A DNA stretch of 64,000 nucleotides. It comes from an uncultured archaeon (lineage in GTDB: Archaea; Asgardarchaeota; Hermodarchaeia; Hermodarchaeales; Hermodarchaeaceae). Where the stretch lies: NCBI GenBank assembly GCA_964347045.1, contig CAYFXC010000005.1, positions 32,068 through 96,067 on the forward strand. Reading direction: 5' to 3'. Numbering within the stretch: the first letter of the stretch is position 1; each line of letters opens with the position of its first letter. Positions 1 through 54,563 of this stretch are shown one piece after another. The notes under the pieces are model-generated. The model was not told where the DNA came from, searched no databases, and was given only the letters and a program-made list of their open reading frames with translations. The position numbers and the translations under genes were made by a program.

Positions 1-881
1 TAAGCCAAGAATATCAAGATTGTAAATCGGATTTATTTCCGTTTAATTCACGCCAACAAAAAGTCACTGAGCAACTTCAAAATCTCGAATCTCAGCGGTT
101 ACGGCGTCAAGCAGAAATTGATCGTATATCCGCGGAAGTCAAACAACGAGAAGATGAACACCTTCATCTTATGAAACAAACCAAAGATTTTCAAAAAGCA
201 GCAACCAAACTTGCAGATCGTCCTGATGTCGTTCGTGAGCCTGCTGCAATTCGTGATGATCAAATACAGGTTCAAGCAATGATCGATACTATTACAGCAA
301 CTGCCAAGGATCATCAAGCCTTTGAAGAACAAGAAAAAGTTGTATCACAACTCCAAGAATATATAAAACAACGTCAACTTCATCTTGAGAATCTTATGAC
401 CGACGTTGATCGACGACTCGTCGAATGGCGACGTCAACTCGAAGAGACTGTTGAAACTCTTAACCAACGAATGAATCAATTACTCAGCCACTTTCTCAAG
501 CAAGTCAAACTTCTTATTCGGTATCCCGATGAACCCAGCCGAGCTGAGCTCCATCTTCAACTTGCTATCAACCGTAAAGGGGATTGGAGAACCTATCAAG
601 AAATGTCCGGTGGCGAACGGGTTCTGGCTACCCAAACCTTCATACTTGCCCTTCACACGTTAGCAAAAAGCCCACTCCATGTGATCGACGAATTTACCCA
701 ACGCCTTGATGAAGCGAGCCGCGCAGCGATTTTAAATGTCGTTCAAAGGGCCCTCGACCTGACCCAGCAAGAATCGCTAATACATCCCCAGTTTCTTTTA
801 ATGGCTCCATCAACGGTCGGGCTCCAAATACCCGAGACTATGAATCATGTAGTTCTGATTAAAGGACAGGTGAAAAAATAG
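1..881 (+). CDS. SMC-family ATPase, C-terminal coiled-coil arm plus C-terminal head half (5' end outside window)
   Basis: Frame 3 is open from the window edge to TAG 879-881; the track only shows it from Met171. A long charged coiled-coil-like stretch (QRLRRQAEIDRISAEVKQRE...) is followed by the ABC/SMC signature MSGGER, Walker B LHVIDEF, D-loop-like LDEAS and QFLLMAPS near the C-terminus. Confidence 0.8.
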   Translation, partial: SQEYQDCKSDLFPFNSRQQKVTEQLQNLESQRLRRQAEIDRISAEVKQREDEHLHLMKQTKDFQKAATKLADRPDVVREPAAIRDDQIQVQAMIDTITATAKDHQAFEEQEKVVSQLQEYIKQRQLHLENLMTDVDRRLVEWRRQLEETVETLNQRMNQLLSHFLKQVKLLIRYPDEPSRAELHLQLAINRKGDWRTYQEMSGGERVLATQTFILALHTLAKSPLHVIDEFTQRLDEASRAAILNVVQRALDLTQQESLIHPQFLLMAPSTVGLQIPETMNHVVLIKGQVKK

Positions 882-1672
882 TGATTGCTAATGATACATC
901 AGCATTTCTTCGGGCTTTTCCCCGTCGTAAAGCTTGGTATGATAGTTTCCAAAATAACTACAAACGAAACCGTCTAACACGTTTTGGTACAAAAAGTGTC
1001 ATTATTACCCTTTGGAATCTGACTAAAAAATATGAAGTTGCACTCAAACATCATGATGTGGTTCCTGTTAAAGAAGCGGAATTAGACCGTGAGGAGGTCA
1101 CTGATGCTTTTCGTGTTCTCGATACTCCCTGGGAACGCAATCTGGATGGGCGATTCTACTACACCCTCGCCTCAATGCAACACCGCCGTGACGCTCAATT
1201 CGCTGCACCTGAAATTGCTCCCGAAGAATGGATTTCTCAATTCGCCAATGAGGTTAAACGTCGAGCCACTCCTATACTCTTCTTAATTAATCAAGAGCGT
1301 ACCATCCCTCCCTTTGATTTGCCTCCAGCTGATATGCCAATGGCAATGGATGTAGCACCATCTCGAGATGATCAGCAGGCAATACGGAGACATCGAGTTC
1401 GCTTCGAAGAAATTTCAATTGCTAGGCTTGATGCTCGTCGAACTTCCATTCTGGAACGTCTAAGAGGAAAACGATACAGCTTCACAGCATTATCCAATCT
1501 TCTAACTAACTGGGAATTAGATTTGTTGAGCCAGATGATCCGTGATGATTTGCTTCCTGCTACATTCGAGAAAACCGCTATTGTCTTTCAGAAGCCATCG
1601 CAATCTCAAAAAGCTGGTATTAGATTTAGTGCTGTCGCCATTCCTGCAAAAAATCATGAGGAGATTCATTGA
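881..1672 (+). CDS. Hypothetical protein, kleisin-sized (263 aa); possible kleisin-like partner of the upstream SMC-family ATPase
   Basis: The GTG start overlaps the upstream TAG by 1 nt (taGTG), with a GGTGA SD-like motif upstream. Helical N- and C-terminal regions are separated by a Pro/Asp/Met-rich probable linker (PPFDLPPADMPMAMDVAPSRDD). I recognise no family motif. Confidence 0.55.
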   Translation: MIANDTSAFLRAFPRRKAWYDSFQNNYKRNRLTRFGTKSVIITLWNLTKKYEVALKHHDVVPVKEAELDREEVTDAFRVLDTPWERNLDGRFYYTLASMQHRRDAQFAAPEIAPEEWISQFANEVKRRATPILFLINQERTIPPFDLPPADMPMAMDVAPSRDDQQAIRRHRVRFEEISIARLDARRTSILERLRGKRYSFTALSNLLTNWELDLLSQMIRDDLLPATFEKTAIVFQKPSQSQKAGIRFSAVAIPAKNHEEIH

Positions 1673-2319
1673 CAGTGACATCTGATCAAGCACCTCAAGA
1701 CTCAATTTCACCTTCCTCTGAGGAAAACGAAGAAGAATTCGAGCAACATCATCTGTTAGGTCAACTCTTTGCTGCTCTCACTGCTCGATTTCGTAATGAG
1801 GATGGTCAATTGACCATCGGTGTCAAACGACAGGATTTGCTTCAAGCCCTTCATATTAACAAAGCTGGATTAACTCGTCTACTCGATTTACTTCGCCAAC
1901 AGATAACTCCGCTCGGATTGGAATTAGTTGAATATCGGTTAGGTCGAGATACACTCTATTGTATCCGTACAATCTATGGAGTTCCTGGAGAACTCACAGA
2001 TCCCGAATACGCAGTCCTTGGTGTCATAATTTCGACCATAGAACGGGCAAGCAAACATCGTCGTCCTCGCAGAGTTGCAACAAAAGACATCGAAACTATT
2101 CTCGTTGCTCGGGGACGCCTATCCCGCTACCAGCTAGATAAAATACTTCGACGTTTAACTGAACTAGGTTACATCACACGAACAGCACGACGAATTGTAT
2201 ATGGTCCACGGCTGGAATTGGAATTTGATGCTGAACGTCGCGAAGCCATTTCTAACGCCGCTACTCTTTTTCTTGCGGGTGCAATTGCTGAATCGGAGGA
2301 CATAAAGAATGAAACTTGA
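1669..2319 (+). CDS. Hypothetical protein with acidic N-terminus and two putative winged-helix repeats (ScpB/KITE-like architecture)
   Basis: The TTG start overlaps the upstream TGA (TTGA, 1669-1672). Segments GLTRLLDLLRQQITPLGLELVEY and SRYQLDKILRRLTELGYITRTARRIVYGPR look like wHTH recognition helix plus wing. The domain call is inferred from the sequence pattern only. Confidence 0.55.
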   Translation: MTVTSDQAPQDSISPSSEENEEEFEQHHLLGQLFAALTARFRNEDGQLTIGVKRQDLLQALHINKAGLTRLLDLLRQQITPLGLELVEYRLGRDTLYCIRTIYGVPGELTDPEYAVLGVIISTIERASKHRRPRRVATKDIETILVARGRLSRYQLDKILRRLTELGYITRTARRIVYGPRLELEFDAERREAISNAATLFLAGAIAESEDIKNET

Positions 2320-2770
2320 CCTTTCCACCGTTGGTATCAGCTGTGTTGCCTGTGGTACACGAACAACACTCGAGCAGGCAATCCAAAATGACTGGCATCA
2401 GTGTCTCCGTTGCCAATTCTTTATTGATCCTCATTGCCTTGAAATTGTACAAAACACGATGGGCGGAGTTTGCCCCTCTTTCAGTCAGGGAGTATCCCGG
2501 CATTCTCTACAACAAGCAGATATCCCCTCTGAACAAATCCTTATTTTCGTTAAAGATCAATATCAGAAAGGTCGAATAGGGGTTCTCATCGACACACTCT
2601 TCTATACAAAACCATCTGCTCTTGAAAAACCTCAACATAAAAGTGAACTACAACCCCATTTCGAAGAAGCCCTTACTCGCGAAGAAATCTGGCAACGATA
2701 TGGTCTTGTATTAGTGCAACGATCCCATGGTAAATGGAAAACTTGGGAAAAAGTTGGTAGTACAGGATAA
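2309..2770 (+). CDS. Small Cys/His-rich protein with N-terminal zinc ribbon (153 aa)
   Basis: ATG 2309 overlaps the upstream stop (TGA 2317-2319), with GGAGGA 9 nt upstream. The N-terminus carries C12-x2-C15 ... H30-x-C32-x2-C35 ... H42-C43 ... C55. Confidence 0.55.
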   Translation: MKLDLSTVGISCVACGTRTTLEQAIQNDWHQCLRCQFFIDPHCLEIVQNTMGGVCPSFSQGVSRHSLQQADIPSEQILIFVKDQYQKGRIGVLIDTLFYTKPSALEKPQHKSELQPHFEEALTREEIWQRYGLVLVQRSHGKWKTWEKVGSTG

Positions 2771-2810: not shown

Positions 2811-3185
2811 ATGGCATCTCAATCTGTATCCATAGCGATAGGCTCGGAGCTGATGGGTGTGGTTGATGAAAAATCTCCAATTTGGGTAAAGCATGCCATC
2901 CGGCGATGGAAACAGTTCTATCATGAAATCCAATATGCTGATGGGCAAATTGATATTTCGAACCCCTTGAGTACAATCTTTCGCAACGAATCTCAAATGG
3001 CAAAATTAGCTGTTGAAGGTAGCTCTGTATCAACTGAATCTATTCAGACAAAAAAAGAGGACTCAACAAAGTCTCAACCAGAGAAGATACCTTCTTCGAA
3101 ACCTGAACAAAAACAGAGTAAGGGGCGGTTTCTCTTTAAAATAAAGGAACTCCAGTTCCTTTCTACTCCGCTCAGCTTTTTTTGA
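2811..3185 (+). CDS. Hypothetical protein (124 aa), low-complexity Ser/Lys/Glu-rich C-terminal half
   Basis: ORF only. It starts 40 nt after the Zn-ribbon gene on the same strand, and its 3' end runs into a hairpin/T-run and overlaps the convergent deacetylase gene by 14 nt. Coding status is uncertain. Confidence 0.3.
   Translation: MASQSVSIAIGSELMGVVDEKSPIWVKHAIRRWKQFYHEIQYADGQIDISNPLSTIFRNESQMAKLAVEGSSVSTESIQTKKEDSTKSQPEKIPSSKPEQKQSKGRFLFKIKELQFLSTPLSFF
3144..3183. terminator. Hairpin (7-bp stem AAGGAAC/GTTCCTT, 4-nt loop) followed by T7 between convergent genes; candidate bidirectional terminator
   Basis: Stem is 3144-3150 / 3155-3161 and the T-run is 3177-3183 on the + strand. The reverse strand has TATTTTAAA after the same hairpin. 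Oligo-T tracts are the usual archaeal termination signal. Confidence 0.35.
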
Positions 3186-4173
3186 TATGTTTTTGGGCAT
3201 TTTCGTCTATTCCGAGTTCAGCCAGAATTTTATCAATAATATTGCTTGCCGCTCGCTTTGTCTCCTTTGATTCGGTTACCGCTTCATCTCTGATATCCTC
3301 AGGCAGTTGTGGTAATCCAGCAAGTTTTCTGATGATTCCCGAGATTGCATGTTTAGCAACTGACTCCTCAGATCCTCCGGATAGCAATACCACCAACCGA
3401 CCTGAACACATTTCATCCGCCGCCTGTAGTAGAATGCCTGTCATAGCTGGAAATGCTCGTAGTGATAGATTGAAGCCACCATAATCTAAGGCATGTGCAT
3501 CATGTCCCATATTCCACAATATTATTTCAGGACGACAAAGCCGAGCCCAGGGAAGTACTAATCGGCGTACGGCTTCTACAAAGGACTCGTCACTGCTACT
3601 GCTGGGAAATGGAATGTCGACATGGTGCATACTAACTGTGTCTATGCTCTCCCGAAAACTTGCCTCAAAGTTGAGGTGAAACACGCCTTCATCATGACCA
3701 AGTATATCACGTGTTCCATCACCAGGATGGGGGTCTGTATCAACAATGAGAAACCGCTTTACATCGTGGCCTTGCTGTAAATGACGTACAAGCAACGCTG
3801 TATTGTTATAGTAGCAAAATCCCCAGAACGAATCACGGCTAGCGTGATGACCCGCACACCCCGTAAATGCAAAAGCGTTCGCTGCTTCACCGACCCAAAC
3901 GGCCTCTCCCGCTCTAACAGCAGAGCCACCCGATACTAAGGAGGCTGGATCATATCCTGACCCTTTCACTTGCTTAATATGGTCAGGCGTATGAACTTTC
4001 AACAGCAACCTCTCACTTACTTCTGGGGCTTCTTCAACTCTGACTTGGGCGGAATCGAAGGTGCCTGTTTCTTGCAAATAGTCAAATGCGGGCTGTACCC
4101 GACCGGCTAAAACAGGATATCCTTCGACAGCCATTAAAGGATGGTAAACAACAAGAGTTGGCTTCTTTTTCAT
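3172..4173 (-). CDS. Histone deacetylase-family enzyme (acetylpolyamine/acetoin-utilisation type deacetylase)
   Basis: Class I/II HDAC motifs: CAGHHASRDSFWGFCYYNN (catalytic HH and GFC), VDTDPHPGDGT (metal-binding D.D.H.GDG) and GGFNL. Confidence 0.85.
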   Translation of the reverse strand: MKKKPTLVVYHPLMAVEGYPVLAGRVQPAFDYLQETGTFDSAQVRVEEAPEVSERLLLKVHTPDHIKQVKGSGYDPASLVSGGSAVRAGEAVWVGEAANAFAFTGCAGHHASRDSFWGFCYYNNTALLVRHLQQGHDVKRFLIVDTDPHPGDGTRDILGHDEGVFHLNFEASFRESIDTVSMHHVDIPFPSSSSDESFVEAVRRLVLPWARLCRPEIILWNMGHDAHALDYGGFNLSLRAFPAMTGILLQAADEMCSGRLVVLLSGGSEESVAKHAISGIIRKLAGLPQLPEDIRDEAVTESKETKRAASNIIDKILAELGIDENAQKHIKKS

Positions 4174-14362: not shown

Positions 14363-16396
14363 TTGCTCGGGAGGCGCAACAACTCCGTGGCCACATCGCG
14401 AAAATTCAAACTCAACCCAGACTATACCCCACGCGGTGATCAACCCAAAGCCATCCAGAGACTAATTGATGGCTTTGAACGAGGAAAAAATCAACAGACA
14501 CTATTAGGTGTAACGGGCTCAGGAAAAACTTTCACGGTAGCCTCGGTTGTTGAAGCTCTCCAAAAACCAACGCTGGTTATTGCCCCAAATAAGACACTAG
14601 CGGCACAATTAACGAGTATGTTCCGTGAATACTTCCCCGAGAACGCAGTAGAATATTACACATCCTATTATGATTATTTCCAACCCGAAGCCTACATGCC
14701 AACATCAGATGTGTATATCGAAAAGGATGCATCCATTAACGAAGAAGTTGAACGCATGCGATTGTCCGCAGTCGCTTCTCTCGCTGTTCGAAATGATGTC
14801 CTCATCGTTGCCACTGTCTCATGCATCTATGGAATCGGAGCACCTGGGTCATACCGAAACTTAGTAGTAGAGCTAGAACAGGGACAAGACATCCCACGAG
14901 ACGAGCTTTTCGCTCGCCTTGTTCATATTAACTATACTCGCAATGATTTCGATTTTCATCGAGGAACATTTCGGGTTCGCGGTGAAGTAATCGAAGTCTT
15001 TCCGGCGTATGCGAATCATCCAATTCGACTAGAAACCTTCGGGGATACAATTGAACGTATCACAGACATCGCACCTGTGAAAGGCACAGTACTCTATGAA
15101 CGAGAAAAAGCCAAAATCTTCCCCGCCAAACAATTCACCACAGATCAAAAGATATTACCAGAAATTTTAGAACAAATAGAAAACGAACTAGATGCCCGCT
15201 TAAAGGAATTAGAAGAGCAAGAAAAAATACTGGAAGCAGACCGACTACGTCGGCGAGTGAAATATGATATCGAAATGATGCGCTCCGTTGGCTGGACCGG
15301 AGGCATCGAAAACTACTCTAGATATTTTGATGGACGCAAGGAGGGTCAGAAACCTTTCTGTCTATTAGATCACTATCCTGAAGCTTTTCTCCTTGTAATT
15401 GATGAATCTCACATCACCGTTCCACAGATCGGTGGCATGTACTATGGTGATTTATCCCGAAAACGCAACCTTGTGGATTATGGGTTCCGGTTACCCTCAG
15501 CATTTGATAATCGTCCTTTAACCTTTGAAGAATTTGAACCCTATATGCGAACCGTACTCTATACTTCCGCAACACCCGCTGGTTATGAAAGAAAGCATTC
15601 GAATGAGATCGTTGAACAAATCGTTCGGCCCACAGGTCTAGTTGACCCGAAAATCATTGTACGTCCTACGGAAGGGCAAGTGGAAGACTTATTGGGAGAA
15701 ATCCGTGACCGCGCGAAAAAGGATGAGCGTGTTCTGGTAACCACATTAACGAAACGCATGGCTGAAGACTTGGCTGATTATATGGTGCACGCGGGTGTCA
15801 AGGCGGAATATCTACACTCAGAAGTGGGAACTCTCGAGCGAATTGAAGTACTACGAAATCTTCGGCGCGGGAAACATGAGGTTGTAGTGGGAATTAATCT
15901 TCTACGTGAAGGACTCGATCTTCCTGAAGTCTCGCTTGTAGCTATTCTAGATGCAGATAAGGAGGGGTTCCTACGTTCTGAAACAAGTTTGATTCAGATT
16001 ATGGGGCGAGCTAGCCGCAATGTTAGCGGGACAGTTATTTTGTACGCAGATCGAATGACTGAATCAATGAAACGAGCAATTGGTGAGAATAATCGACGCC
16101 GAGATATGCAAATTGCCTATAACAAGGAGCATGGCATCACAGCAACAACCATTGTTAAATCCATTTCCGATATTGCAGAAGGTGTTGAGCGGCTTACTGC
16201 AGATTCACGTACACAAGTGAAGGTACCAAAGAATTGGCGTAGTGCTAATGAAAGTGATTTGGCCCTATTAATCGTTGAATTAAGAGAGGAGATGCTACAG
16301 GCAGCAGAAGACCTAGAATTTGAACGCGCAGCTGAGGTTCGGGATTTAATTAACGAGATTGAAGCCTATTTGGGACTTCAGACAAAGGTTTCATAG
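14363..16396 (+). CDS. uvrB: Excinuclease ABC subunit B
   Basis: P.GDQPKAI, Walker A GVTGSGKT, DESH box, YYDYFQPEAY beta-hairpin region, helicase motifs, and a C-terminal UVR domain (LEFERAAEVRD). The start is TTG 14363 or GTG 14387. Confidence 0.95.
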   Translation: MLGRRNNSVATSRKFKLNPDYTPRGDQPKAIQRLIDGFERGKNQQTLLGVTGSGKTFTVASVVEALQKPTLVIAPNKTLAAQLTSMFREYFPENAVEYYTSYYDYFQPEAYMPTSDVYIEKDASINEEVERMRLSAVASLAVRNDVLIVATVSCIYGIGAPGSYRNLVVELEQGQDIPRDELFARLVHINYTRNDFDFHRGTFRVRGEVIEVFPAYANHPIRLETFGDTIERITDIAPVKGTVLYEREKAKIFPAKQFTTDQKILPEILEQIENELDARLKELEEQEKILEADRLRRRVKYDIEMMRSVGWTGGIENYSRYFDGRKEGQKPFCLLDHYPEAFLLVIDESHITVPQIGGMYYGDLSRKRNLVDYGFRLPSAFDNRPLTFEEFEPYMRTVLYTSATPAGYERKHSNEIVEQIVRPTGLVDPKIIVRPTEGQVEDLLGEIRDRAKKDERVLVTTLTKRMAEDLADYMVHAGVKAEYLHSEVGTLERIEVLRNLRRGKHEVVVGINLLREGLDLPEVSLVAILDADKEGFLRSETSLIQIMGRASRNVSGTVILYADRMTESMKRAIGENNRRRDMQIAYNKEHGITATTIVKSISDIAEGVERLTADSRTQVKVPKNWRSANESDLALLIVELREEMLQAAEDLEFERAAEVRDLINEIEAYLGLQTKVS

Positions 16397-16537
16397 GCTG
16401 AATTACTTACACTCTGGTCTCCCTTCCTCTTATATGTTTAAACAAACCTCTGGAGTGAGAAAGCTGATAAAACAGGTCAGCTAACCTGGCACGCTGACGC
16501 ACTATATGGTTGGGCTGGGTGTAGAACCGTAACTCTT

Positions 16538-19516
16538 ATGGCAGCTGGTGCAATCGGTGCCGCGGACAAAATAGGTGACACATGGGTGAGCGACAATAAG
16601 TACATTACAGTCAAAGGCGCCCGCGTACACAACCTAAAAAACATCACTGTGCAGATTCCGCGGGACAAATACGTAGTTATCACTGGACTCTCTGGTTCCG
16701 GCAAGTCCTCATTAGCGTTTGACACTCTCTTCGCTGAAGGACAACGACGATACGTTGAATCTCTATCTGCATATGCTCGACAGTTCTTAGGTCGGATGGA
16801 CAAACCCGATGTCGATTCAATTGAAGGACTAAGTCCAGCAATATCAATTGACCAACGGTCTGCAGGTGGTAATCCCCGTTCCACAGTAGGTACAACCACT
16901 GAAATTTATGATTATATGCGGCTGCTTTGGGCCCGAATCGGAATTCCTCATTGCCATCAATGTGAGCGGCGCATTGCTCCCCAATCAGCTCAACAGATTG
17001 TCCGACAAATCTTGGAATTTGAGGAAGGCAAACGAGTCCGAATCCTTTCACCAATTATTCGAGGACGAAAAGGCACGTATAAAGCACTCTTTAATAAGCT
17101 ACAAAGCGAAGGCTTCATCCGCGTTCGGGTTGATGGAGAAGATCATCGATTAGATACAGCTGACATCGAACTAGACCGCTATAAAATACACAATATCGAA
17201 ATCATCGTTGACCGATTGGTGCTCAAACCATCCGTTGAACCACGCTTGACTCAGTCTGTGGAAACTGCCCTTGAATTTGGCGAGGGCCTTGTTATAGTTG
17301 ATGTTCAAGGTGAACAAGAATACTTATTCAGTGAATCCGCCGGTTGCCCCGTGTGTAGCATTAGCTTTCCTGATCTAGCTCCACGGCTCTTTAGCTTCAA
17401 TTCACCTTATGGTGCTTGTTCAGAATGTAAAGGATTAGGTTACACCCTTGAGGTTGATCCAGACCTCGTAGTGCCCGATCCAACCAAGTCGATCCGCGAA
17501 GGCGCAATCACTCCCTATCATGTGCCACTAAATGGATGGCGTTTACGAAGCCTTACTAGCATAGCCAACCATTACAGGTTCAGCCTCGATACTCCCTTCA
17601 AGGATTTAGATCCCGAAATTCAGCGAATCCTCCTTTATGGTTCCGGTGAAGAAGAAATACGATTTGAACATCATGGTGTCACTCAGTCCGGACGCAAATG
17701 GGAATGGATTAGCGAAAAACCTACCATGGGCGTCATTCCCGGCCTAAAACACCGATACAAGAATACAAGTTCTGAAATTGTTCGGGATTCCATTACACGC
17801 TTTATGGCCCAGTTACCTTGTCCAGTTTGCCAAGGTCGCAAGTTACGCCCCGAAGCCCTCGCAGTCACAATAAATAACAAAAGTATTGATCATGTGACAA
17901 ATCTTGCCATTGATGAAACCTTGAGCTTCTTTGATACACTTAAGCTCACGAAAAAGGAAGCCACAATTGCCCGTCAGACACTTCGGGAAATCAAACAACG
18001 TCTTCAATTTCTCTCTTCGGTCGGGCTGGATTATCTCACTCTAGACCGACAATCTGCAACGCTGGCAGGGGGTGAAGCCCAACGCGTCCGACTCGCAACT
18101 CAAATTGGCTCCCGCCTAGTGGGGGTGACCTATATTCTCGACGAACCCAGCATTGGTCTCCACATGCGTGACAACCAACGCCTCCTATCAATGCTCCTCC
18201 AATTACGTGATCTTGGTAACACCGTACTGGTTGTAGAGCATGACGAGGGCTTCATCCGTGCCGCAGACTGGGTAATCGATCTTGGACCTAGCGCAGGTAT
18301 TCATGGAGGACAGGTTGTAGCTGAAGGCACCGTCGCAGATATTGAAGCGCATCCGAAATCAATAACTGGGCAATATCTCCGCGGGGACAAGGTCATCTCT
18401 GTACCTCCCACCCGTCGCATTGGGAATGGAGCAAGTATTCAGATCAAAGGGGCTCACCATCGGAACCTCAAAAATATCGATGTGATATTTCCACTCGGCA
18501 CCTTCATCTGCATCACTGGCGTCTCTGGATCCGGAAAAAGCACCCTCATCACAGATACCCTGTATCCAGGCATAATCTGGCAATTTCGCCAACGCCGCCG
18601 ACGTCAATCTGACGCGATATTAGCTAGCTCGATCCAAAAGCCAGGACCCTATAAGGCTATCCAGGGAGTTGACCTGATTGATAAAGTCATCTTAGTCGAC
18701 CAATCACCCATCGGACGTACACCACGTTCCAATCCTGCAACGTATACTCAGGTTTTCGGACCGATTCGTGAATTATTCTCAAAAACCGTAGAAGCTCGAA
18801 AACGCGGGTATCAACCAGGTCGCTTCAGTTTCAATGTCAAAGGTGGTCGATGTGAAACCTGTAGTGGAGCCGGGGTACTTCGAATTGAAATGCAGTTTCT
18901 ACCTGATGTATACGTTGTGTGCGATGAGTGCCATGGTAAACGGTTCAATAAAGAAACCCTACAAGTTCGATACAAGGGTAAGACCATCTATGAAGTGCTT
19001 CGAATGACAGTAGACGAAGCTGCGGAGTTCTATAAGAACATTCCAAAGGTTATACGGATCCTCGAAACACTTCAAAGAGTAGGACTAGGATACATGGAGT
19101 TGGGTCAACCCTCGCCTACGCTGAGTGGTGGTGAAGCCCAACGCATCAAGTTGAGTCGCGAACTAGGTAAGCGTAGCACTACCCAAACCCTCTACATCTT
19201 AGACGAACCGACTACAGGACTCCATCTTGCGGATGTCCAGAAACTGCTCGATGTATTGAACCATCTTGTTGATGCGGGAAACACTGTCATTGTTATTGAA
19301 CATCAACCCGATGTGATTAAGGGTGCAGATTATATTATCGATTTGGGGCCAGAAGGTGGTGACAAGGGTGGGTTTATTACGGCACAGGGAACGCCTGAAC
19401 AAGTGGCACGGAATCGTACATCACACACCGGTTCAGTGCTTCGTAAGGCGCTTGCGATAAAAACTGAACGCGATTCGCAAGAATCCAGTGGACGTATGGA
19501 AATCCTTTCCCGGTAA
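16538..19516 (+). CDS. uvrA: Excinuclease ABC subunit A
   Basis: [10 protein letters not shown], two ABC modules ([24 protein letters not shown]; LSGGEAQR twice), and zinc modules (CHQC, CPVC...C..C, CPVCQG, CETC...CDEC). Confidence 0.95.
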
Positions 19517-19566
19517 AAGCGAACCTTTCTTCAATCCCAATGGTGTTTTATTAGGTGATTAGGGCG

Positions 19567-21393
19567 ATGAATCTTGAACAGGAATTGAAGGATTTGCCCG
19601 ACGCACCCGGCGTCTATATTCTTTACGACGCCAATGATATGGTCGTCTACGTTGGGAAAGCCCGATCTCTAAAAAAACGGGTTCCCGCCCATTTTCGGGG
19701 CATTGGGGGTGGCAATGTTTTCTCACCCATTGGTCAAGAGGTTACCGAACTTGAGTATATGGTCACGGCTAACGAATCCGAAGCCCTAGTTCTCGAAGAT
19801 AATATGATCAAACGCCATAAACCCCGTTATAATATTCGCTTGAAAGATGACAAGAGTTTCCCTTATGTTCGTATCACCCTTCAAGATGATTTTCCACGAG
19901 TTGAAAAAACCCGAAGCTTGGTCCATGATGGCAGCCGCTATATTGGTCCTTATTCCAACGTGAAAGCGTTGGATGGACTCCTTAAATCGATTAATCGCAT
20001 CGTTCCGCTTGCCACGTGTAAACCCACCATTGTTCCAGGCAAACGAAAACGTGCATGTCTTAAGCATGACATCGGATACTGTCCTGCACCCTGCATCAAT
20101 AAGATAAGCAAAGAAGATTATGCTGAGCTCGTTCAAGAATATGTACTTATGCTTACTGGGCAACACGATCAACTCGAAACCCATCTTCAACGGCTCATGA
20201 CTAAAACCTCAGAAGCACAAGAATTCGAAAAAGCGGCTCGATACCGTGATCGATTACATGCAGTACAACGTGGACGGCAAGCTCAGCGCGCGACCTATTG
20301 GAATCAACTGCCAGGTCACCGTGATGTTTTGGGGCTAGCCCGTGCGGGTCCTGATGCATTGGTCCAATTACTTGTCGTTCGAGAAGGGCGGGTCGTTGGA
20401 CAGCAACCCTTCCCTCTAAGTGCACCCTCCGAGCTTCCAGACGAAACGGTATTAGAAGCCTTTCTCAAACAGTACTATCTTCGGGCTACTGAGATTCCTG
20501 AAGAAGTCATTGTTTCGGTACCAGTTTCCGATAGTCAATTTCTTGAAGAATGGCTAACACAACGCCGCGGCAATGAACATCATGTCAAAATTCACCATCC
20601 TACCAAAGACCCCTTCTTTAGTCTAATCCAAATGGCTAATGAAAACGCCCAATTCCATCTCCATCAACTCATCGAACGCATGGCAAGAGATGAAGGTCGC
20701 AAACAACAAGCTTATAATGACCTTATAGAAGCCCTCCAACTTTCTGGAGAACCTACTCATATTGAAGGCTTTGACATTTCCACCCTTCAAGGTACCGAAT
20801 CCGTTGGTGTATGTGTTGTATTCAAAGAAGGAATTCCATTCAAGAAAGGATATCGACGATTCAAAATCCGTGATGTGGAGGGTCAAGATGACTTTGCGAT
20901 GATGTACGAAGTAGTTCAACGAAGATACAGCCGATTAATAGCTGAGAAGAGTCACCTACCCAATCTCATTGTCATCGACGGTGGGCGGGGACAACTGAGT
21001 ATGGCTCTCAAAGCCTTAGAATCAGTTGGAGCTACGGATATTCCTATGATTGGATTAGCGAAAGCAGAACGACCCGATCCTGATCTCGTCTATCTCCCAA
21101 GTCAGAAAAACCCGATAAACTTGCCTGCTGATAGTCAGGGGCTGCGACTATTACAGCGCGTACGAGATGAAGCTCATCGTTTTGCAATTGCTTATCATCG
21201 AAAGATTCGCCAGATAAAAGGTTTGAAATTAACATTGACGGATATTCCCGGTGTTGGAGTGAAACGTGCTACTCTCCTTCTACAGCATTTTGGCAATAGA
21301 GAGAACTTGTCAAAAGCATCAGTCGAGGAAATTGCTGCAGTGCCTGGTATTACAAAAAGTCTCGCTAAAGAGATTTTAGAGCATTTCACATGA
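19567..21393 (+). CDS. uvrC: Excinuclease ABC subunit C
   Basis: GIY-YIG domain (PGVYILYD...VYVGKA), UVR domain (FEKAARYRD), an endonuclease V-like domain and a C-terminal (HhH)2. ATG 19567 is preferred over the track GTG 19555. Confidence 0.95.
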   Translation: MNLEQELKDLPDAPGVYILYDANDMVVYVGKARSLKKRVPAHFRGIGGGNVFSPIGQEVTELEYMVTANESEALVLEDNMIKRHKPRYNIRLKDDKSFPYVRITLQDDFPRVEKTRSLVHDGSRYIGPYSNVKALDGLLKSINRIVPLATCKPTIVPGKRKRACLKHDIGYCPAPCINKISKEDYAELVQEYVLMLTGQHDQLETHLQRLMTKTSEAQEFEKAARYRDRLHAVQRGRQAQRATYWNQLPGHRDVLGLARAGPDALVQLLVVREGRVVGQQPFPLSAPSELPDETVLEAFLKQYYLRATEIPEEVIVSVPVSDSQFLEEWLTQRRGNEHHVKIHHPTKDPFFSLIQMANENAQFHLHQLIERMARDEGRKQQAYNDLIEALQLSGEPTHIEGFDISTLQGTESVGVCVVFKEGIPFKKGYRRFKIRDVEGQDDFAMMYEVVQRRYSRLIAEKSHLPNLIVIDGGRGQLSMALKALESVGATDIPMIGLAKAERPDPDLVYLPSQKNPINLPADSQGLRLLQRVRDEAHRFAIAYHRKIRQIKGLKLTLTDIPGVGVKRATLLLQHFGNRENLSKASVEEIAAVPGITKSLAKEILEHFT

Positions 21394-43282: not shown

Positions 43283-46200
43283 ATGAAACATTCTTTTACG
43301 AAATTGTGTGGAATTCCATTAATCCTTCTGCTTACATTCACTTTGTTTTTTCCTTTGATAACTCCAACTTCATTTTTGCCGTCGAATAAGGCACTGTTTT
43401 CAGTGTCCCCTCTTGATTTTCGTTCATTCGAGCCAACTGTGTCCCAACCGGCGTCTCCAGAATATCTAATTATCACGCCAAACAGTGCGTGGGTTCAATC
43501 ATTCGCGGAATGGAAAAACCTGAAAGGGGTTCCAACGCAAGTAGCTAATGTGAGTTGGATACAAGCAAACTATCCGATATCTGCCACGGTTCGGGATAAG
43601 GCTGAGCAGATTTGGACGTTCATTGAAGATGTGTATGATAATGTGTCACCTGCAACTCTTCAATGGGTTCTTCTCATTGGCGATAATACCACCATTCCCT
43701 CGCGCTATGTGTATTTACCTGATACTGCTGAATGGATTGGTCAAGATCCTAATCTGAAACCCACTGACTTCTATTACTCTGTCATGGGTGATTCAGATTG
43801 GGATGATGATAACGACGGACGTTGGGGTGAATGTGCTACCTTCAACATTGGTGGTCCAGGCTACGATGAAATTGGAGATTGGCTACCTGATCTCTATGTG
43901 GGACGAATTCCGTTCAATGATCAAAGTAACGTATCAAGCATATTGGCTAAAAGCCTGAATTATGCACGTAGCCCCACAAGCTTTTCACCAACCGGTTGGG
44001 ATTCCTTTCTCCTCGGTGGTGCTATCAGCAATTATGATGAAGAATTATGGGCTTGGTTGGATCAAGATTACACTGATGAAGCCGAGCTCAGCGACTACAT
44101 TGATGCAAACCACATTCCCGGTTACTATGATATCTACCGTTTCTATGAAGATCGGGCTTTCTTCTGGAACTATACATCTCCCAATACTTTTCAGAAATTA
44201 AATGAAACCGCCATAATCCAAGGCATCAACCAGTATTCACCAGCCCTCATTAACCTCGCAGCCCACGGCAGCCCCACCGACATTCAACGGAAGTACGATC
44301 CCTGGGGCTTTCCATATGGAAATACTTGGTCTAGCGCAACCGCTGGATGGAACACTCCAGTAACCGGTGTAGCTATTGGTGACCCCAATAATGATGGCAA
44401 CAACGAGATTGTTTACACTCTTGGTTTAGGTGGAGGTGTTGGTTTACAAAATGGTACAATCTGGCTCCGTGATGCAAACACAATGTTGGATACCTTAATT
44501 TGGGATCTCTGGACTATGCCCGTCGATGGTTTTCCGACCTTTGCAACATGCGTTGATATTGGAGACGTCTGGAACAATGGCACCATTGCAGTTGTCGTGG
44601 GAACTTGGTCCGGTTCAACAGTCATCTTTACTTACTGGATGAATACAATATGGACTGCTATCCTAGTTAGTGGTCCTGAAGTAACTGATCCTGTATTGTG
44701 CATTGAAGTCGGAAATGCTGATAATGTACTCGAACCTCATGGCTACGGAGGAAGTACTACTCCTGCCACAAATGTTGATATCGCCTGGGGTCACTTCAGT
44801 GGATGGACCTTTATTGCAACCTGTTTTGGTGCACCAGGTGTATTGAACCATGTTATTTTCGTAGCAAATGTTCTGAATATCGGACAATCCGTATACTCTA
44901 TAGATGTAGGTGATCCAGATGATGATGGGCTGGGAGAAATCACCTGTGGCACTGGTTATAAGAACGCGAGTGTACTTCAGGGTGATTGCTATCAGCTTTG
45001 GTACAACCCAGGAATCCAGTGGAATCAACTCGTAATAGAAAAATCCCTAGGTGGGTTTGTCTATGGGGTTGACACTGGAAATGCAGCGAACGATGGGTAT
45101 AACAAAGTGGTCGTCGGGGTTAGTAATGGCGCTATCTACATGTATGAATCCGGTTGTATTCCTCTTGGACAAACCGGCTTCAAAGGACCTGGTGGCACTG
45201 ATGTAGGTACTAAACAAACTGTCACTAGCTCAGGTGCGAATGCAGGTATGGTAAGATGCCTTAATATTGGCTATGTTGACGATAATGACCTTGTATCGAC
45301 CTATCCGACGCCTATTGAACAGTATTCAATTATTGCTGGAAATCAATACGGTGGTATTTGGAAATACCATGCAAACAATGTTACTGGATTTCTTGACTCC
45401 TATCATATCGCAATTGAAAACTACATGTTTGGTGTCAATGTCACTGACCTAGATGTTGGCGAACTCAGCCATGTCACGGGTGAAACAACTCCCAATGAGG
45501 AGGTCGCAGCGGGAAGTGAGGTTGGCTTAATGCCTCTTTCCTTTGTTTATTGGTTTGAGTGGCCCTGGAATCTTTGGGGGAATATGTTGAATACCACTCA
45601 GGTTAATGCATCAACAGCCAGTATCCCTGCACTCGTTTATGCTGATTCATGTCATACGGCTGGATACGATTATGCTCAAGAAGCATTAGCCGAGACCTTT
45701 ATTCGAAATATGGCTATTGGTTACATTGGCTCCATGCGAATTAGTTGGTATTATCGAGGTCCCGTGTCGAACTCCTTTACGTGGGGTCTAAATCGATATA
45801 TGTCTCAAGACTTCTGGAATCTTTTCTTCAGTGGAACGACAGGTTATCGACCGGGTGCAACACTCTATCAGAACAAAATTGATTACCAAACAACATTCGC
45901 TTCCATTGCTTCAACCTTTCCAGCAACATGGGAAACGTTTCATCGTAAGAATCTTCTCAGCTTTGCACTGTTTGGAGATCCTGAAGTTGATGTGTTCACA
46001 AATAATCCAAGGACACTTTCTGTTAACCATCCCGCAAATGCCAACTTTAATGGCGACACGCTCTTTCGTGTCATGGATGGCACTTCACCAATTGCAGGCG
46101 CCACCATCTGTTTGTGGGATAAAGACGGATCTTATTACGAAGTTCAAATCACAAACAGCTCAGGCTATGCCATTCTCCATGTAACTGCTTCGGTGCCAAA

Positions 46201-46729
46201 TTCCATCAATGTGACAGTGACCGCCCATGATTATGTACCCTACGAAACCATCATTGGAACTCAGCATTGGCTCGATGTCACTCGTCCCCTTGTTTCCTAT
46301 ACTCCAGCGACATCACTTCTTGATATTACTAGTGTTACGGCTACCTGCAGCAATTCAGCACATGGCACACTTGACGATGCTGAAGCCTCAACCAACACCT
46401 ACGCAATCTACGATGACACGACTGGCCTAATAACAACTCTATCAGGTGCACTTACTTGGTCCGGAAGTGAATGGCAATACATTAGTCTGGATGTCTCATC
46501 ACTTCCCCATGGGTCCTATTATGTTATCTGTACCTTTGCGGATGCGGATGTCAGTGACACGAACAGTCCACGCTCTGCTGTCTTCACAATTGGTCCAGTT
46601 GGACCACCACCGTTTGACCTTTTCCAGTGGCTGCTACAGAATTGGCTTATCGTCGTTATGGCAATTGTCATCATTCTTTTGCTGATTCTAATAGTTGTGC
46701 TATTACGGCGAAGAAAATCAGTTGAATGA
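43283..46729 (+). CDS. Membrane-anchored surface protein: gingipain-like (C25/clan CD) peptidase with FG-GAP-like beta-propeller insertion and CarboxypepD_reg-like domain
   Basis: - N-terminal signal/TM and a C-terminal TM plus RRRK anchor.
- C25-like blocks: YLIITP...FAEWKNLKGVPTQV, VLLIGDNTTIP and DLYVGRIP.
- Clan-CD dyad candidates: LINLAAHGSP (His about residue 328) and ALVYADSCHTAG (Cys about residue 790).
- About 7 repeats of the type V.IGDP.NDG..EIV between them.
- Late segment GTSPIAGATICLWD...ITNSSGYAIL. Confidence 0.6.
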   Translation: MKHSFTKLCGIPLILLLTFTLFFPLITPTSFLPSNKALFSVSPLDFRSFEPTVSQPASPEYLIITPNSAWVQSFAEWKNLKGVPTQVANVSWIQANYPISATVRDKAEQIWTFIEDVYDNVSPATLQWVLLIGDNTTIPSRYVYLPDTAEWIGQDPNLKPTDFYYSVMGDSDWDDDNDGRWGECATFNIGGPGYDEIGDWLPDLYVGRIPFNDQSNVSSILAKSLNYARSPTSFSPTGWDSFLLGGAISNYDEELWAWLDQDYTDEAELSDYIDANHIPGYYDIYRFYEDRAFFWNYTSPNTFQKLNETAIIQGINQYSPALINLAAHGSPTDIQRKYDPWGFPYGNTWSSATAGWNTPVTGVAIGDPNNDGNNEIVYTLGLGGGVGLQNGTIWLRDANTMLDTLIWDLWTMPVDGFPTFATCVDIGDVWNNGTIAVVVGTWSGSTVIFTYWMNTIWTAILVSGPEVTDPVLCIEVGNADNVLEPHGYGGSTTPATNVDIAWGHFSGWTFIATCFGAPGVLNHVIFVANVLNIGQSVYSIDVGDPDDDGLGEITCGTGYKNASVLQGDCYQLWYNPGIQWNQLVIEKSLGGFVYGVDTGNAANDGYNKVVVGVSNGAIYMYESGCIPLGQTGFKGPGGTDVGTKQTVTSSGANAGMVRCLNIGYVDDNDLVSTYPTPIEQYSIIAGNQYGGIWKYHANNVTGFLDSYHIAIENYMFGVNVTDLDVGELSHVTGETTPNEEVAAGSEVGLMPLSFVYWFEWPWNLWGNMLNTTQVNASTASIPALVYADSCHTAGYDYAQEALAETFIRNMAIGYIGSMRISWYYRGPVSNSFTWGLNRYMSQDFWNLFFSGTTGYRPGATLYQNKIDYQTTFASIASTFPATWETFHRKNLLSFALFGDPEVDVFTNNPRTLSVNHPANANFNGDTLFRVMDGTSPIAGATICLWDKDGSYYEVQITNSSGYAILHVTASVPNSINVTVTAHDYVPYETIIGTQHWLDVTRPLVSYTPATSLLDITSVTATCSNSAHGTLDDAEASTNTYAIYDDTTGLITTLSGALTWSGSEWQYISLDVSSLPHGSYYVICTFADADVSDTNSPRSAVFTIGPVGPPPFDLFQWLLQNWLIVVMAIVIILLLILIVVLLRRRKSVE

Positions 46730-54418: not shown

Positions 54419-54563
54419 GGGGTCATGGCCTAACCAGGTATGGCAACGGGCTCCAGAAGAAGCCACCAGAAATACAAACTGACCGGATGCTCGGGATGAC
54501 GATGTTCTGGAGCGACCTGGTGAAACCCGTAGATTCTGGGTTCAAATCCCAGTGACCCCACCA
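54419..54563 (+). tRNA. tRNA-Trp (anticodon CCA) with 68-nt intron after position 37; 3' CCA encoded
   Basis: Hand-folded as follows:
- Acceptor stem GGGGTCA / TGACCCC.
- D stem GCC(T) / (T)GGC with a GG loop.
- Anticodon stem ACGGG (54446-50) / CCCGT (54526-30).
- Anticodon loop CT-CCA-G[intron 54457-54524]A.
- Variable loop AGATT.
- T arm CTGGG-TTCAAAT-CCCAG.
- Discriminator A, then CCA. Confidence 0.9.

Follow-up and report, generated by a model that had tools for sequence, protein, structure and literature searches.

A conserved archaeal SMC5/6-like operon with a probable RING-like fourth subunit and a putative link to ubiquitin-like conjugation

Layout and conservation of the operon

The 64,000-nucleotide (nt) stretch of DNA analysed here (hereafter the window; positions 32,068 to 96,067 of contig CAYFXC010000005.1 in assembly GCA_964347045.1) comes from an uncultured archaeon of the Hermodarchaeaceae (Asgardarchaeota; Hermodarchaeia) and opens inside a gene for an ATPase of the SMC family, which heads a run of four closely packed genes on the forward strand. 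The 3' part of the SMC gene (3-881, +; 292 codons) occupies frame 3, which is open from the window edge to the TAG stop at 879-881. It is followed by a gene for a kleisin-like protein of 263 amino acids (aa) (881-1672, +), whose GTG start shares one base with the SMC stop, by the gene for a KITE protein (1669-2319, +; 216 aa when counted from TTG) and by that for a zinc-finger protein of 153 aa, here called the Zn protein (2309-2770, +), whose ATG lies 11 nt inside the KITE gene. The junctions read taGTG at 879-883, TTGA at 1669-1672, and ATG 2309 versus TGA 2317-2319. A preliminary description of the sequence had given these open reading frames and overlaps correctly, with one point to refine: as the start of the KITE gene, GTG 1675 is preferred to TTG 1669 by gene callers as well as by the way in which homologues begin (M-T-S-D/N...), in which case the product would have 214 aa and its start would lie 2 nt past the stop of the 263-aa gene, with the tight packing retained.

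The order of the four genes is kept in every related locus that is long enough, in a sample of metagenome contigs and of 16 genomes, distinguished at species level, that were found in a genome scan (the sources bear the names Candidatus Hermodarchaeota, Promethearchaeota, Thorarchaeota and Hodarchaeota), and the set is seen in genomes of the Hermodarchaeia type (hereafter Hermod-type), in those of the Heimdall type and in further lineages. Because all four homologues recur in the same order across relatives, the pattern of open reading frames is not due to chance; the view that these genes form a single operon for an SMC, a kleisin-sized, a KITE and a Zn protein, for which conservation in related genomes had been suggested as a check, has thus held. 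The lowest identities found among homologues were 44% for the kleisin-like protein, 58% for the KITE, 62% for the Zn protein and 62% for the SMC C-terminus, and most gene junctions in relatives are overlaps of 1 or 4 nt. In the Hermod type the cluster occupies one conserved chromosomal position in all genomes sampled, and its constant flanking genes (those for a HAD hydrolase, a helicase, a histone deacetylase, a glycerate kinase-like protein and a CoA ligase) are of a housekeeping type.

The SMC ATPase

The fragment encoded in the window comprises the C-terminal coiled-coil arm and the C-terminal half of the head, with the signature motif MSGGE (603-617) and the Walker B motif LHVIDE (675-692) followed by the D-loop region and a QFLLMAPS motif, and it just reaches a match with the Pfam family SMC_N (41 bits). 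The full-length protein is known from relatives, in which it measures 962-986 aa: an N-terminal head with Walker A (GSNGSGKT) is joined by one arm to a hinge-like globular middle, from which another arm leads on to the C-terminal head. Is this an ordinary Smc? On the NCBIfam models TIGR02168/TIGR02169, full-length relatives reach 117.2/115.9 bits (locus L004; related loci are numbered with the prefix L) and 101/89 bits (L006), to be compared with equivalog cut-offs of 567/729; for the fragment in the window the NCBIfam score is 35 bits. The Pfam matches of the 966-981-aa SMCs in L004, L006, L008, L026 and L037 consist of SMC_N and AAA families, and SMC_hinge (PF06470) is absent from them, although a hinge-like globular segment is visible in the SMC alignment. 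Since the protein falls so far below the equivalog cut-offs and has no SMC_hinge match, it is not a canonical Smc.

A family profile built from ten members of several clades was then compared with all sequences in the PDB. Its best match was SMC6, with 138 bits in one collinear alignment that spans profile positions 7-938, and yeast Smc6 scored 110-114 bits; partial head constructs of Pyrococcus Smc came next with 96, 86 and 78 bits, and lower scores were obtained for SMC4 (72 bits), SMC1A (58-62), SMC5 (54-58), SMC3 (54) and SMC2 (43). For the window fragment taken separately, the best PDB match was human SMC5 (40.8 bits, versus 33 bits for Pyrococcus Smc). Read as a ranking of profile bit scores and not as a phylogeny, these values indicate that the protein most likely belongs to the SMC5/6-related class of archaeal SMCs. 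Another candidate, an archaea-specific SMC-related protein (ASRP; NF045487) or a Rad50-like short SMC, was rejected: on the ASRP model, whose cut-off is 300, the fragment reaches 34 bits and full-length proteins reach 52-53 bits, and a protein of ~965 aa with a hinge-like middle is set against a hinge-less model of 593 positions.

The kleisin-like protein

The gene for the 263-aa protein always lies between the SMC and KITE genes. Some 50 clusters make up its family in the Hermod type, and homologues can be recognised in other clades as well (alignment A10). In alignments A1 and A10 the two terminal blocks are conserved and flank a variable, Pro-rich middle; the C-terminal one (LTNWELDLLSQMIRD...) looks like a winged helix. 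The arrangement of two ends separated by a Pro-rich linker, which had been proposed from the single sequence, is thereby borne out. Kleisins bind the SMC neck with a helical N-terminal domain and the SMC cap with a C-terminal winged helix, and the layout of the family would be compatible with this. Searches for known relatives returned nothing: the 263-aa protein has no match in Pfam, NCBIfam (E up to 1) or PADLOC, the profiles made from A1 and A10 found nothing among PDB sequences at E up to 10, and no kleisin Pfam family appears among the matches of 34 + 13 kleisin-like members at E up to 10. Where profiles of the partner families did match prefoldin, Dip1 and an aldolase fusion, the similarity was put down to chance. 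We nevertheless consider it likely, and with some confidence, that the protein is a kleisin: its size and architecture fit, its gene lies between those for the SMC and the KITE, and there is a precedent in the SMC5/6-related operons of P. syntrophicum and the Heimdall archaeon LC_3, in which the similarly placed genes were judged kleisins (van Hooff, Raas, Tromer & Eme, bioRxiv 10.1101/2024.01.07.573240).

The KITE protein and the distinction from Smc-ScpAB

Sequence searches with the 216-aa protein (Pfam, NCBIfam, PADLOC and a profile search of the PDB) were blank apart from a weak match to MarR-type winged helices. An AlphaFold2 model built from 34 family sequences (predicted local distance difference test score, pLDDT, 77.7) shows a disordered acidic N-terminal tail, a long helix and two winged-helix units, in agreement with the acidic tail and paired winged-helix repeats previously read from the sequence. 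In a Foldseek search against the PDB, in which template modelling (TM) scores were normalised by query length (TMq), the top 25 matches are essentially only KITEs, members of the superfamily in which Nse1, Nse3, ScpB, MukE and JetB have a tandem winged-helix fold in common (Palecek & Gruber 2015), four of them at E <= 1e-3. The highest similarity is to Nse1 (7dg2_A; E 1.2e-4, TMq 0.53) and Nse3 (7dg2_C; TMq 0.51), followed by the MAGE-G1/NSE1 complex (5hvq_C; TMq 0.48), whereas values are lower for JetB (TMq 0.35-0.43), MukE (TMq ~0.3) and ScpB (TMq 0.26-0.35; Pyrococcus ScpB 6juv 0.29, 3w6j 0.26-0.35). Judged by its predicted fold, the 216-aa protein is a true KITE, as had been supposed, with a geometry nearest to Nse1/Nse3.

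A further line of evidence ties the family to a published example. The Heimdall LC_3 contig MDVS01000144.1 encodes a full-length KITE homologue of 187 aa (hhalign probability 99.5%, E 4e-22), and the same contig has been listed with an SMC5/6-related SMC (_29) and an Nse1-3-related kite (_20) (bioRxiv 10.1101/2024.01.07.573240); from its position on the contig, the 187-aa homologue would correspond to gene _20. When the KITE and Zn proteins were concatenated into one query, only KITE homologues were recovered.

Could the operon nonetheless encode a divergent but functionally ordinary Smc-ScpAB condensin, with the Zn protein as an unrelated passenger? The combination of an SMC, a kleisin-sized protein and a KITE with tandem winged helices is common to both, the gene sizes match those of ScpA and ScpB, ScpB (6juv, 3w6j) is among the significant Foldseek matches of the KITE model, and the Pyrococcus Smc head constructs make up the second-best class of PDB matches of the SMC. 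Other features speak against it. The SMC scores 117/116 bits where 567/729 would be required for the family, its hinge is different and unmatched by SMC_hinge, and its best full-length matches are SMC6 and SMC5; at ~965 aa it is also shorter than the ~1170-aa Smc (NCBIfam models of 1165 and 1181 positions), which would imply shorter arms. The KITE reaches TMq 0.48-0.53 with Nse1/3 as opposed to 0.26-0.35 with ScpB, no member of the operon matches the ScpA or ScpB models of Pfam or NCBIfam, and the additional Zn gene is linked in every lineage examined. A Hermodarchaeum genome has moreover been reported to carry a separate ScpB-like kite beside a kleisin of its own (bioRxiv 10.1101/2024.01.07.573240), which suggests that a second, condensin-like set exists in genomes of this kind. 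An ordinary Smc-ScpAB is hence very improbable, and the reservation already expressed in the preliminary description, namely that the operon departs from the canonical one, was well placed. A core consisting of an SMC5/6-related SMC and its KITE, by comparison, is highly probable.

The fourth, zinc-finger protein

In the Hermod type the Zn protein is the best-conserved partner after the KITE (62-88% identity), and its gene is present in all loci. An exhaustive phmmer search of 1.8 billion representatives yielded a family of 32 cluster representatives of 102-191 aa, whose aligned members (alignment A6) are 22-61% identical to the window protein; those with names belong to Heimdallarchaeota (including LC_3), Hodarchaeales and 'Asgardarchaeia'. 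The finger domain covers residues ~9-70 (2333-2518, +) and has eight zinc-ligand positions in four pairs, following the family pattern C-x2-[C/H/D]-x16-C-x2-C-x4-[C/D]-x2-C-x11-C-x9-H. In the numbering of the window protein the pairs are C12-x2-[C/H/D]15, C32-x2-C35, [C/D]40-x2-C43 and C55...H65; C12, C15, C32, C35, C43, C55 and H65 are invariant in the Hermod set, and position 40 of the window protein is Asp. The spacing is RING/PHD-like, that of the last pair (C...x9...H) being atypical.

The AlphaFold2 model of the Zn protein (27 sequences; pLDDT 86.2, and >90 in the finger domain) consists of the finger (~9-70), helices (~74-105), a low-confidence linker and a three-stranded beta-meander (122-148), which holds the most conserved motif of the whole family, EE.W...G.V.VKR.RGKF.TWE. 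This C-terminal domain (2522-2758, +; delimited by the predicted secondary structure and family conservation) gave no informative structural match in Foldseek searches of the PDB or of a viral library, and is a candidate KITE- or DNA-binding module. Foldseek against the PDB returned a top list of RING, U-box, SP-RING and PHD structures for the Zn model, none of them significant: the list is led by the human NSE2 SP-RING (E 0.28, probability 0.80, target-normalised TM 0.47), and UHRF1, a U-box (TM 0.55), 3lrq, RING1B/BMI1, c-Cbl and RNF20 follow, with target-normalised TM between 0.47 and 0.55 throughout. The viral structure library produced weak matches to baculovirus RING proteins only, nothing being significant. 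The Pfam matches of the 27 members, all below threshold, fall almost entirely on RING-like families (zf-RING_4, B-box, FYVE, IBR, zf-RING_UBOX, best 1.9e-4, and zf-C3HC4). Scans of the window's own Zn protein in Pfam, NCBIfam and PADLOC, and a comparison of a family profile with PDB sequences, yielded nothing beyond noise. An earlier reading had taken this protein for a Zn-ribbon; the protein does have CxxC...CxxC pairs with further invariant Cys and His, and the ribbon gives way, with moderate confidence, to a binuclear RING/B-box-like finger accompanied by a second domain.

The association with the KITE gene is close. The Zn gene lies directly 3' of the KITE gene in 26 of 28 informative loci from several clades, including L038, where SMC-kleisin and KITE-Zn are divergent gene pairs and no genes for ubiquitin-like conjugation lie near. 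The two exceptions are LC_3, in which the KITE homologue is located 5.3 kb away on the same contig, and L039, in which neither KITE nor SMC is found nearby; a 167-aa gene before the Zn gene in L039 was considered as a KITE and rejected (hhalign probability 0.3%). Because the KITE and Zn genes overlap and their adjacency persists, we infer that the Zn protein is bound through the KITE, and it is probably, though with less assurance than the kleisin call carries, a subunit of the SMC complex.

A neighbourhood of putative genes for ubiquitin-like conjugation

The operon has a second set of partners. Neighbourhoods were examined at loci of distant members of the Zn family and in one metagenome scan, with open reading frames labelled by BLAST against reference proteins; the genes for ubiquitin-like proteins (Ubl) and their conjugation lie outside the 64-kb window, and their presence in the genome from which it derives is extrapolated from close relatives (e.g. 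L012, with 87% SMC identity). In L028-L034 (Heimdall-type) and L037 (high-GC), one strand carries, in this order, genes for the SMC, the kleisin-like protein, the KITE, the Zn protein, a JAB peptidase, an E1-like ThiF protein, a protein of ~103 aa and one of ~250 aa, the last often followed by a protein of ~100 aa, and L026 has the same order as far as ThiF. The JAB-ThiF pair adjoins the Zn gene in L026, L028-L030, L032-L035 and L037, and JAB-ThiF directly follows the Zn gene in 9 of 12 informative non-Hermod loci. In the Hermod type the arrangement is different: all 13 of the 13 loci that reach upstream have genes for the 103-aa and 250-aa proteins, for proteins of 72 and 128 aa and for one with a transglutaminase fold, placed divergently just upstream of the SMC gene, and JAB and ThiF lie beyond this divergent set wherever the sequence reaches (L004, L006 and L008, with ThiF fragments at the edges of L012 and L018).

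How firmly can these genes be named? In Pfam, the L004 proteins pass the threshold both for ThiF (117.3 bits, with a cut-off of 28.1) and for Prok-JAB (33 bits, with a cut-off of 25). The ~250-aa protein has an invariant P-R-x-Y-P...H-P-R-x9-A-C in nine sequences, and 24 of the 26 PDB matches of its profile are E2 enzymes, aligned on the active-site PxxYP...HPN...C (best E 0.009); its score on Pfam UQ_con is 16.2 bits, below the cut-off of 27. At the C-terminus of the ~103-aa protein stands an invariant V-G, with 0-2 residues after it; the protein has a weak Pfam match to the ubiquitin-like YukD (E 0.12), and in L035 a protein of this type is fused to the E2-like protein via ...VVGG...; its C-terminal signature suggests a putative ubiquitin-like modifier processed by the JAB peptidase. 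The 128-aa Hermod protein, finally, carries a paralogue of the finger of the Zn protein (hhalign E 1.6e-12). In relatives, therefore, at least ten genes make up a conserved neighbourhood, in which RING-like fingers accompany the SMC5/6-like complex and the E1/E2/Ubl/JAB set. Taken singly, the RING-like, E2-like and Ubl calls all stay below threshold; what weight they have comes from mutual consistency and conserved co-location.

Genes for E1, E2, JAB and Ubl proteins in one operon are typical of prokaryotic conflict systems, and eukaryotic SMC5/6 restricts extrachromosomal viral DNA. It is thus worth asking whether the locus serves anti-plasmid or anti-virus defence, with an SMC sensor of the Wadjet (JetABCD) or Lamassu (LmuABC) type and an E1/E2/JAB/Ubl effector module like that of Bil or CBASS; the former would detect foreign DNA, and the latter would carry out or regulate the response through Ubl conjugation. 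These systems do share an SMC-family ATPase with the present locus, and Wadjet has a kleisin and a KITE as well; in PADLOC, the full-length SMC scores 93 bits on LmuB, 78 on mad3 and 46 on JetC, all of them weak similarities, and ThiF scores 52 bits on CBASS E1-E2 and 24 on BilD, the JAB protein 21 bits. JetB is found among the structural matches of the KITE (TMq 0.35-0.43), and the position of the Ubl module relative to the SMC genes shifts between clades. Against a defence role stands the composition of the cluster, among whose proteins no nuclease or other effector (JetD, LmuA) was detected: for the ten cluster proteins of L004, PADLOC matched only the SMC, ThiF and JAB, with no JetA, JetB, JetD or LmuA, and there was no PADLOC match for the kleisin-like, KITE, Zn, E2-like and Ubl proteins. 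The SMC matches to defence models span only generic head and arm segments, and the gene order here is unlike that of Wadjet, which is jetA-B-C-D. The fixed chromosomal position with the same housekeeping-type flanks in all Hermod-type genomes sampled, moreover, points to vertical inheritance in the core genome and not to a variable island. A defence function is on these grounds improbable, if less so than an ordinary condensin.

Several further observations concern the genes of this neighbourhood. In L035 (60-4914, +; GC 62%), from a high-GC lineage, the contig starts at the Zn gene and continues with JAB, ThiF, a Ser/Thr-kinase-like protein of 647 aa and the Ubl-E2-like fusion. Repeats of the form [IV]-[RK]-[IV]-[IL], followed by acidic residues, occur in the C-terminal tail of the E2-like protein, in the 72-108-aa protein and in the 128-aa finger paralogue (L004:5153-6513, -; L032:10529-11598, +; and the equivalents in L030, L033 and L034), for example as GIRIIG...AVRII...GIRII, RIVILGERD, KVILLGD and RVVFLDDD, and in their sequence they are reminiscent of SUMO-interaction motifs. 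The divergent set of the 13 Hermod-type loci ends with a protein that has a transglutaminase core, i.e. a cysteine-protease fold (L004:4281-5153, -, and equivalents; 549 aa in L006), which could be a second peptidase or a ligase of the Ubl system. In the three Hermod-type loci with enough sequence (L004:485-1948, +; L006:419-1882; L008:1249-2709), the gene directly upstream of JAB-ThiF encodes an SF2 helicase of ~487 aa (ResIII + Helicase_C), which may be part of the same neighbourhood. In the Heimdall-type clade the cluster is followed by a gene for a histidine/phenylalanine ammonia-lyase-like protein of ~573 aa with a Cys-rich insertion (L030:11822-13543, L032:11745-13472, L033:5322-7040 and L034:6479-8200, all +), whose presence there is probably a matter of synteny only, and in L026, from one Asgard lineage, a gene for a 129-aa dsDNA-binding protein (PF01984; 3285-3674, +) lies directly upstream of the SMC gene on the same strand.

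A proposed coupling of an SMC5/6-like complex to ubiquitin-like conjugation

Taken together, we think that the four genes encode an archaeal SMC5/6-like complex which has an extra subunit and is coupled, as the neighbourhood would have it, to ubiquitin-like conjugation, and we give this reading a probability of roughly 0.6. It builds on features that were observed directly: the gene order and its conservation, the SMC class according to profile scores, the KITE fold, the zinc-ligand pattern and the conserved neighbourhood. How might such a complex work? An SMC homodimer of ~965 aa per chain, with Walker A/B heads, short coiled-coil arms and a non-canonical hinge, would be closed into a ring by the 263-aa kleisin-like protein, and the Nse1/3-like KITE would sit, as a dimer, on the kleisin middle. 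SMC complexes act on DNA by ATP-driven entrapment or extrusion, and by analogy with them the present one may entrap DNA or extrude loops in an ATP-dependent manner. Because their genes overlap, the Zn protein would be made in fixed stoichiometry with the KITE and would act as a KITE-associated subunit. Its RING-like finger might then tie the complex to a dedicated cascade composed of the E1-like ThiF, the E2-like protein (HPR...C), the 103-aa Ubl and JAB, so that subunits of the complex or DNA-bound targets would become modified by the Ubl, in parallel to what the Nse1 RING and the Nse2 SP-RING accomplish in eukaryotes. The coupling is proposed because of the neighbourhood and because a RING-type finger is the one component that the cascade is missing; that the Zn protein provides this link is a serious possibility, if one to which we would give slightly less than an even chance.

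Several points weigh against this reading. The placement of the SMC is a matter of bit scores, in which 96 bits are attained even by partial Pyrococcus constructs and the matches include no prokaryotic Smc of full length, and neither ScpA nor Nse4 nor another kleisin is connected with the 263-aa family by any sequence or profile search. The RING-like signal is statistically weak, with a best Foldseek E of 0.28 and every Pfam match below its cut-off, and the first zinc-ligand pair is degenerate in many members, while an Asp replaces one Cys in the Hermod type. The E2-like and Ubl assignments are both sub-threshold. The link between SMC and Ubl is drawn from gene neighbourhood, which for the window itself is known from relatives, its own Ubl genes lying outside; and the Hodarchaeales-type L038 and L040, as well as L039, have no adjacent Ubl genes, L039 being also devoid of an SMC and a KITE nearby.

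Some of these points fit a different role for the Zn protein, that of a structural or DNA-binding partner of the KITE (a stand-in for a second KITE, a loader or a regulator) without any E3-like activity, the proximity of the Ubl genes then reflecting co-regulation, plain synteny or a complex that serves as substrate, and not one joint machine. The KITE-Zn adjacency does occur away from Ubl genes, in L038, and the LC_3 pair, 5.3 kb apart, likewise has none adjacent; the most conserved part of the protein is the C-terminal domain and not the finger, whose first ligand pair is degenerate and whose likeness to RINGs is not significant; and the finger paralogue that belongs to the Hermod Ubl set could be the actual E3. 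Such a role has to be reconciled, on the other hand, with the Zn gene being followed by JAB-ThiF in 9 of the 12 informative non-Hermod loci, L035 included, and with the recurrence of the same finger domain inside the Ubl gene set. It would also leave the E1/E2/Ubl/JAB cascade lacking a RING-type finger, a component that is present alongside E1 and E2 in the system of Caldiarchaeum (PMC5654768). We regard a role of this kind as unlikely, though far from negligible.

If, by contrast, the SMC5/6-like complex is coupled to the Ubl cascade, could this bear on the origin of its eukaryotic counterpart? SMC5/6 is the least understood SMC complex in eukaryotes and serves in addition as a platform for ubiquitin and SUMO ligation, to which the Nse1 RING and the Nse2 SP-RING contribute. 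In present evolutionary accounts this ligase feature, by which the complex is set apart, counts as a eukaryotic addition to an SMC-kleisin-kite core of archaeal origin, and the present locus suggests otherwise: a RING-like subunit and a conserved Ubl neighbourhood, in Hermod-, Heimdall- and other Asgard-type genomes, raise the question of an SMC-Ubl link that existed before eukaryogenesis. One may speculate that the coupling between SMC5/6 and the ubiquitin family predates eukaryotes, with the adjacent KITE and finger genes as an unfused precursor, or a close analogue, of Nse1; on our estimate this is rather unlikely. It would have the RING-like subunit docked on the Nse1/3-like KITE, and the complex together with E1, E2, Ubl and JAB acting as a DNA-bound E3 platform, a picture to be held just as tentatively. 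Were it true, the view of the Nse1 RING as a eukaryotic innovation would be contradicted. Should the Ubl link be mere synteny, the result would be more modest, namely a new accessory subunit of an archaeal SMC5/6-like complex that has already been described. Small, apparently soluble and all encoded in one cluster, the proteins should lend themselves to reconstitution and structure determination, with no need to culture the organisms.

Relation to known systems

SMC5/6-related SMC-kleisin-kite operons have already been described in TACK and Asgard archaea (Yoshinaga & Inagaki 2021, PMC8665677; van Hooff, Raas, Tromer & Eme, bioRxiv 10.1101/2024.01.07.573240). The operon in the window resembles them in the order SMC-kleisin-kite, in its Asgard/TACK hosts, in an SMC nearest to SMC5/6, in a kite of the Nse1/3 type and in having a KITE homologue on the published LC_3 contig MDVS01000144.1, so that the suggestion of an undescribed system, made when the four genes were first noticed, does not survive as far as the core is concerned, which is most likely of the reported archaeal SMC5/6-related type. 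Two things set it apart. The published archaeal operons have three subunits, whereas this locus adds a RING-like Zn protein that is translationally coupled to the kite; and its relatives adjoin E1-like, E2-like, Ubl and JAB genes, unlike anything in those three-subunit accounts, one of which states that archaeal kites lack the Nse1 RING and calls it a eukaryotic innovation (bioRxiv 10.1101/2024.01.07.573240). In the open-access literature and the full text of bioRxiv we found no report of a fourth Zn/RING subunit, or of an E1/E2/Ubl/JAB neighbourhood, for archaeal SMC operons. What appears to be new, then, is that a fourth, RING-like subunit is conserved and that the operon is physically linked to the E1-like/E2-like/Ubl/JAB set, the core being already known.

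A published entry may be understood in the same light. For a Hermodarchaeum genome, van Hooff et al. (bioRxiv 10.1101/2024.01.07.573240) listed SMC5/6-related SMCs, a single Nse1/3-related kite encoded apart from them ('not direct neighbours') and nothing in the way of an Nse4-related kleisin. This is what would be expected from the layout described here if the kleisin in between had escaped detection, as the kleisin of this family does in sequence searches, in their study and in ours.

The comparison with the eukaryotic complex is closer in some respects than in others. The eukaryotic SMC5/6 holocomplex contains Smc5, Smc6, the kleisin Nse4 and the KITEs Nse1 and Nse3; Nse1 consists of KITE winged helices followed by a RING, and Nse2 carries the SP-RING of a SUMO ligase. 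Shared with it are the best SMC matches (SMC6 and SMC5), a KITE fold nearest to Nse1/Nse3, a RING-like finger tied to the KITE, with a gene order KITE-finger that mirrors the domain order of Nse1, and a genomic association with a ubiquitin-like conjugation pathway. In contrast to it, the archaeal locus has a single SMC gene, presumably for a homodimer, and a single KITE instead of the Nse1/Nse3 pair; the finger belongs to a distinct protein that has a C-terminal domain besides, and its similarity to the RINGs of Nse1 and Nse2 (best Foldseek E 0.28) is a resemblance and not a demonstrated homology. The Ubl is a 103-aa protein ending in VG, neither ubiquitin nor SUMO, and at the locus no subunit like Nse5/6, or like the arm-binding Nse2, was recognised.

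The same components are known from other archaeal and bacterial settings. The E1/E2/RING-E3/Ub/Rpn11 set of Caldiarchaeum subterraneum (PMC3082918, PMC5654768) and the Bil and CBASS systems have the component list of this locus's relatives, i.e. an E1-like ThiF, an E2-like protein with HPx...C, a Gly-terminated Ubl, a JAB peptidase and small Zn-finger proteins. They differ in that here the set is physically joined to an SMC-kleisin-KITE operon, whereas in Caldiarchaeum the SMC operon is described apart from the Ub operon; in that the Ubl and the E2-like protein here fall below the Pfam cut-offs; and in the E2-like protein itself, which here has ~250 aa and a tail of repeated [IV][RK]I[IL] motifs.

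Other features of the window

The Zn gene is followed at a distance of 40 nt by a gene for a small conserved protein of 124 aa (2811-3185, +), which has no Pfam match; a homologue (label u113) is found at the same position in many, not all, Hermod-type loci, and the gene may be a lineage-specific fifth member of the operon. Convergent with the operon lies a gene of the histone-deacetylase family (Pfam Hist_deacetyl; 3172-4173, -), which is located in the same place in every Hermod-type locus.

Farther along, ~11.6 kb downstream of the SMC operon, there is a complete operon for nucleotide excision repair of the bacterial type (14363-21393, +), in which uvrB (14363-16396, +), uvrA (16538-19516, +) and uvrC (19555-21393, +) all have strong Pfam matches. 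A tRNA gene at 54419-54560 (+; 142 nt) was detected by Rfam (53 bits, covering the full model, 1-71), while ARAGORN reported none in the whole window; it is most likely an intron-containing archaeal tRNA. Two long open reading frames, of 992 and 1148 aa, were considered as a possible second SMC in the window and rejected: the first encodes UvrA, and the second (43283-46729, +) a protein with a gingipain-like Peptidase_C25 domain (124 bits).

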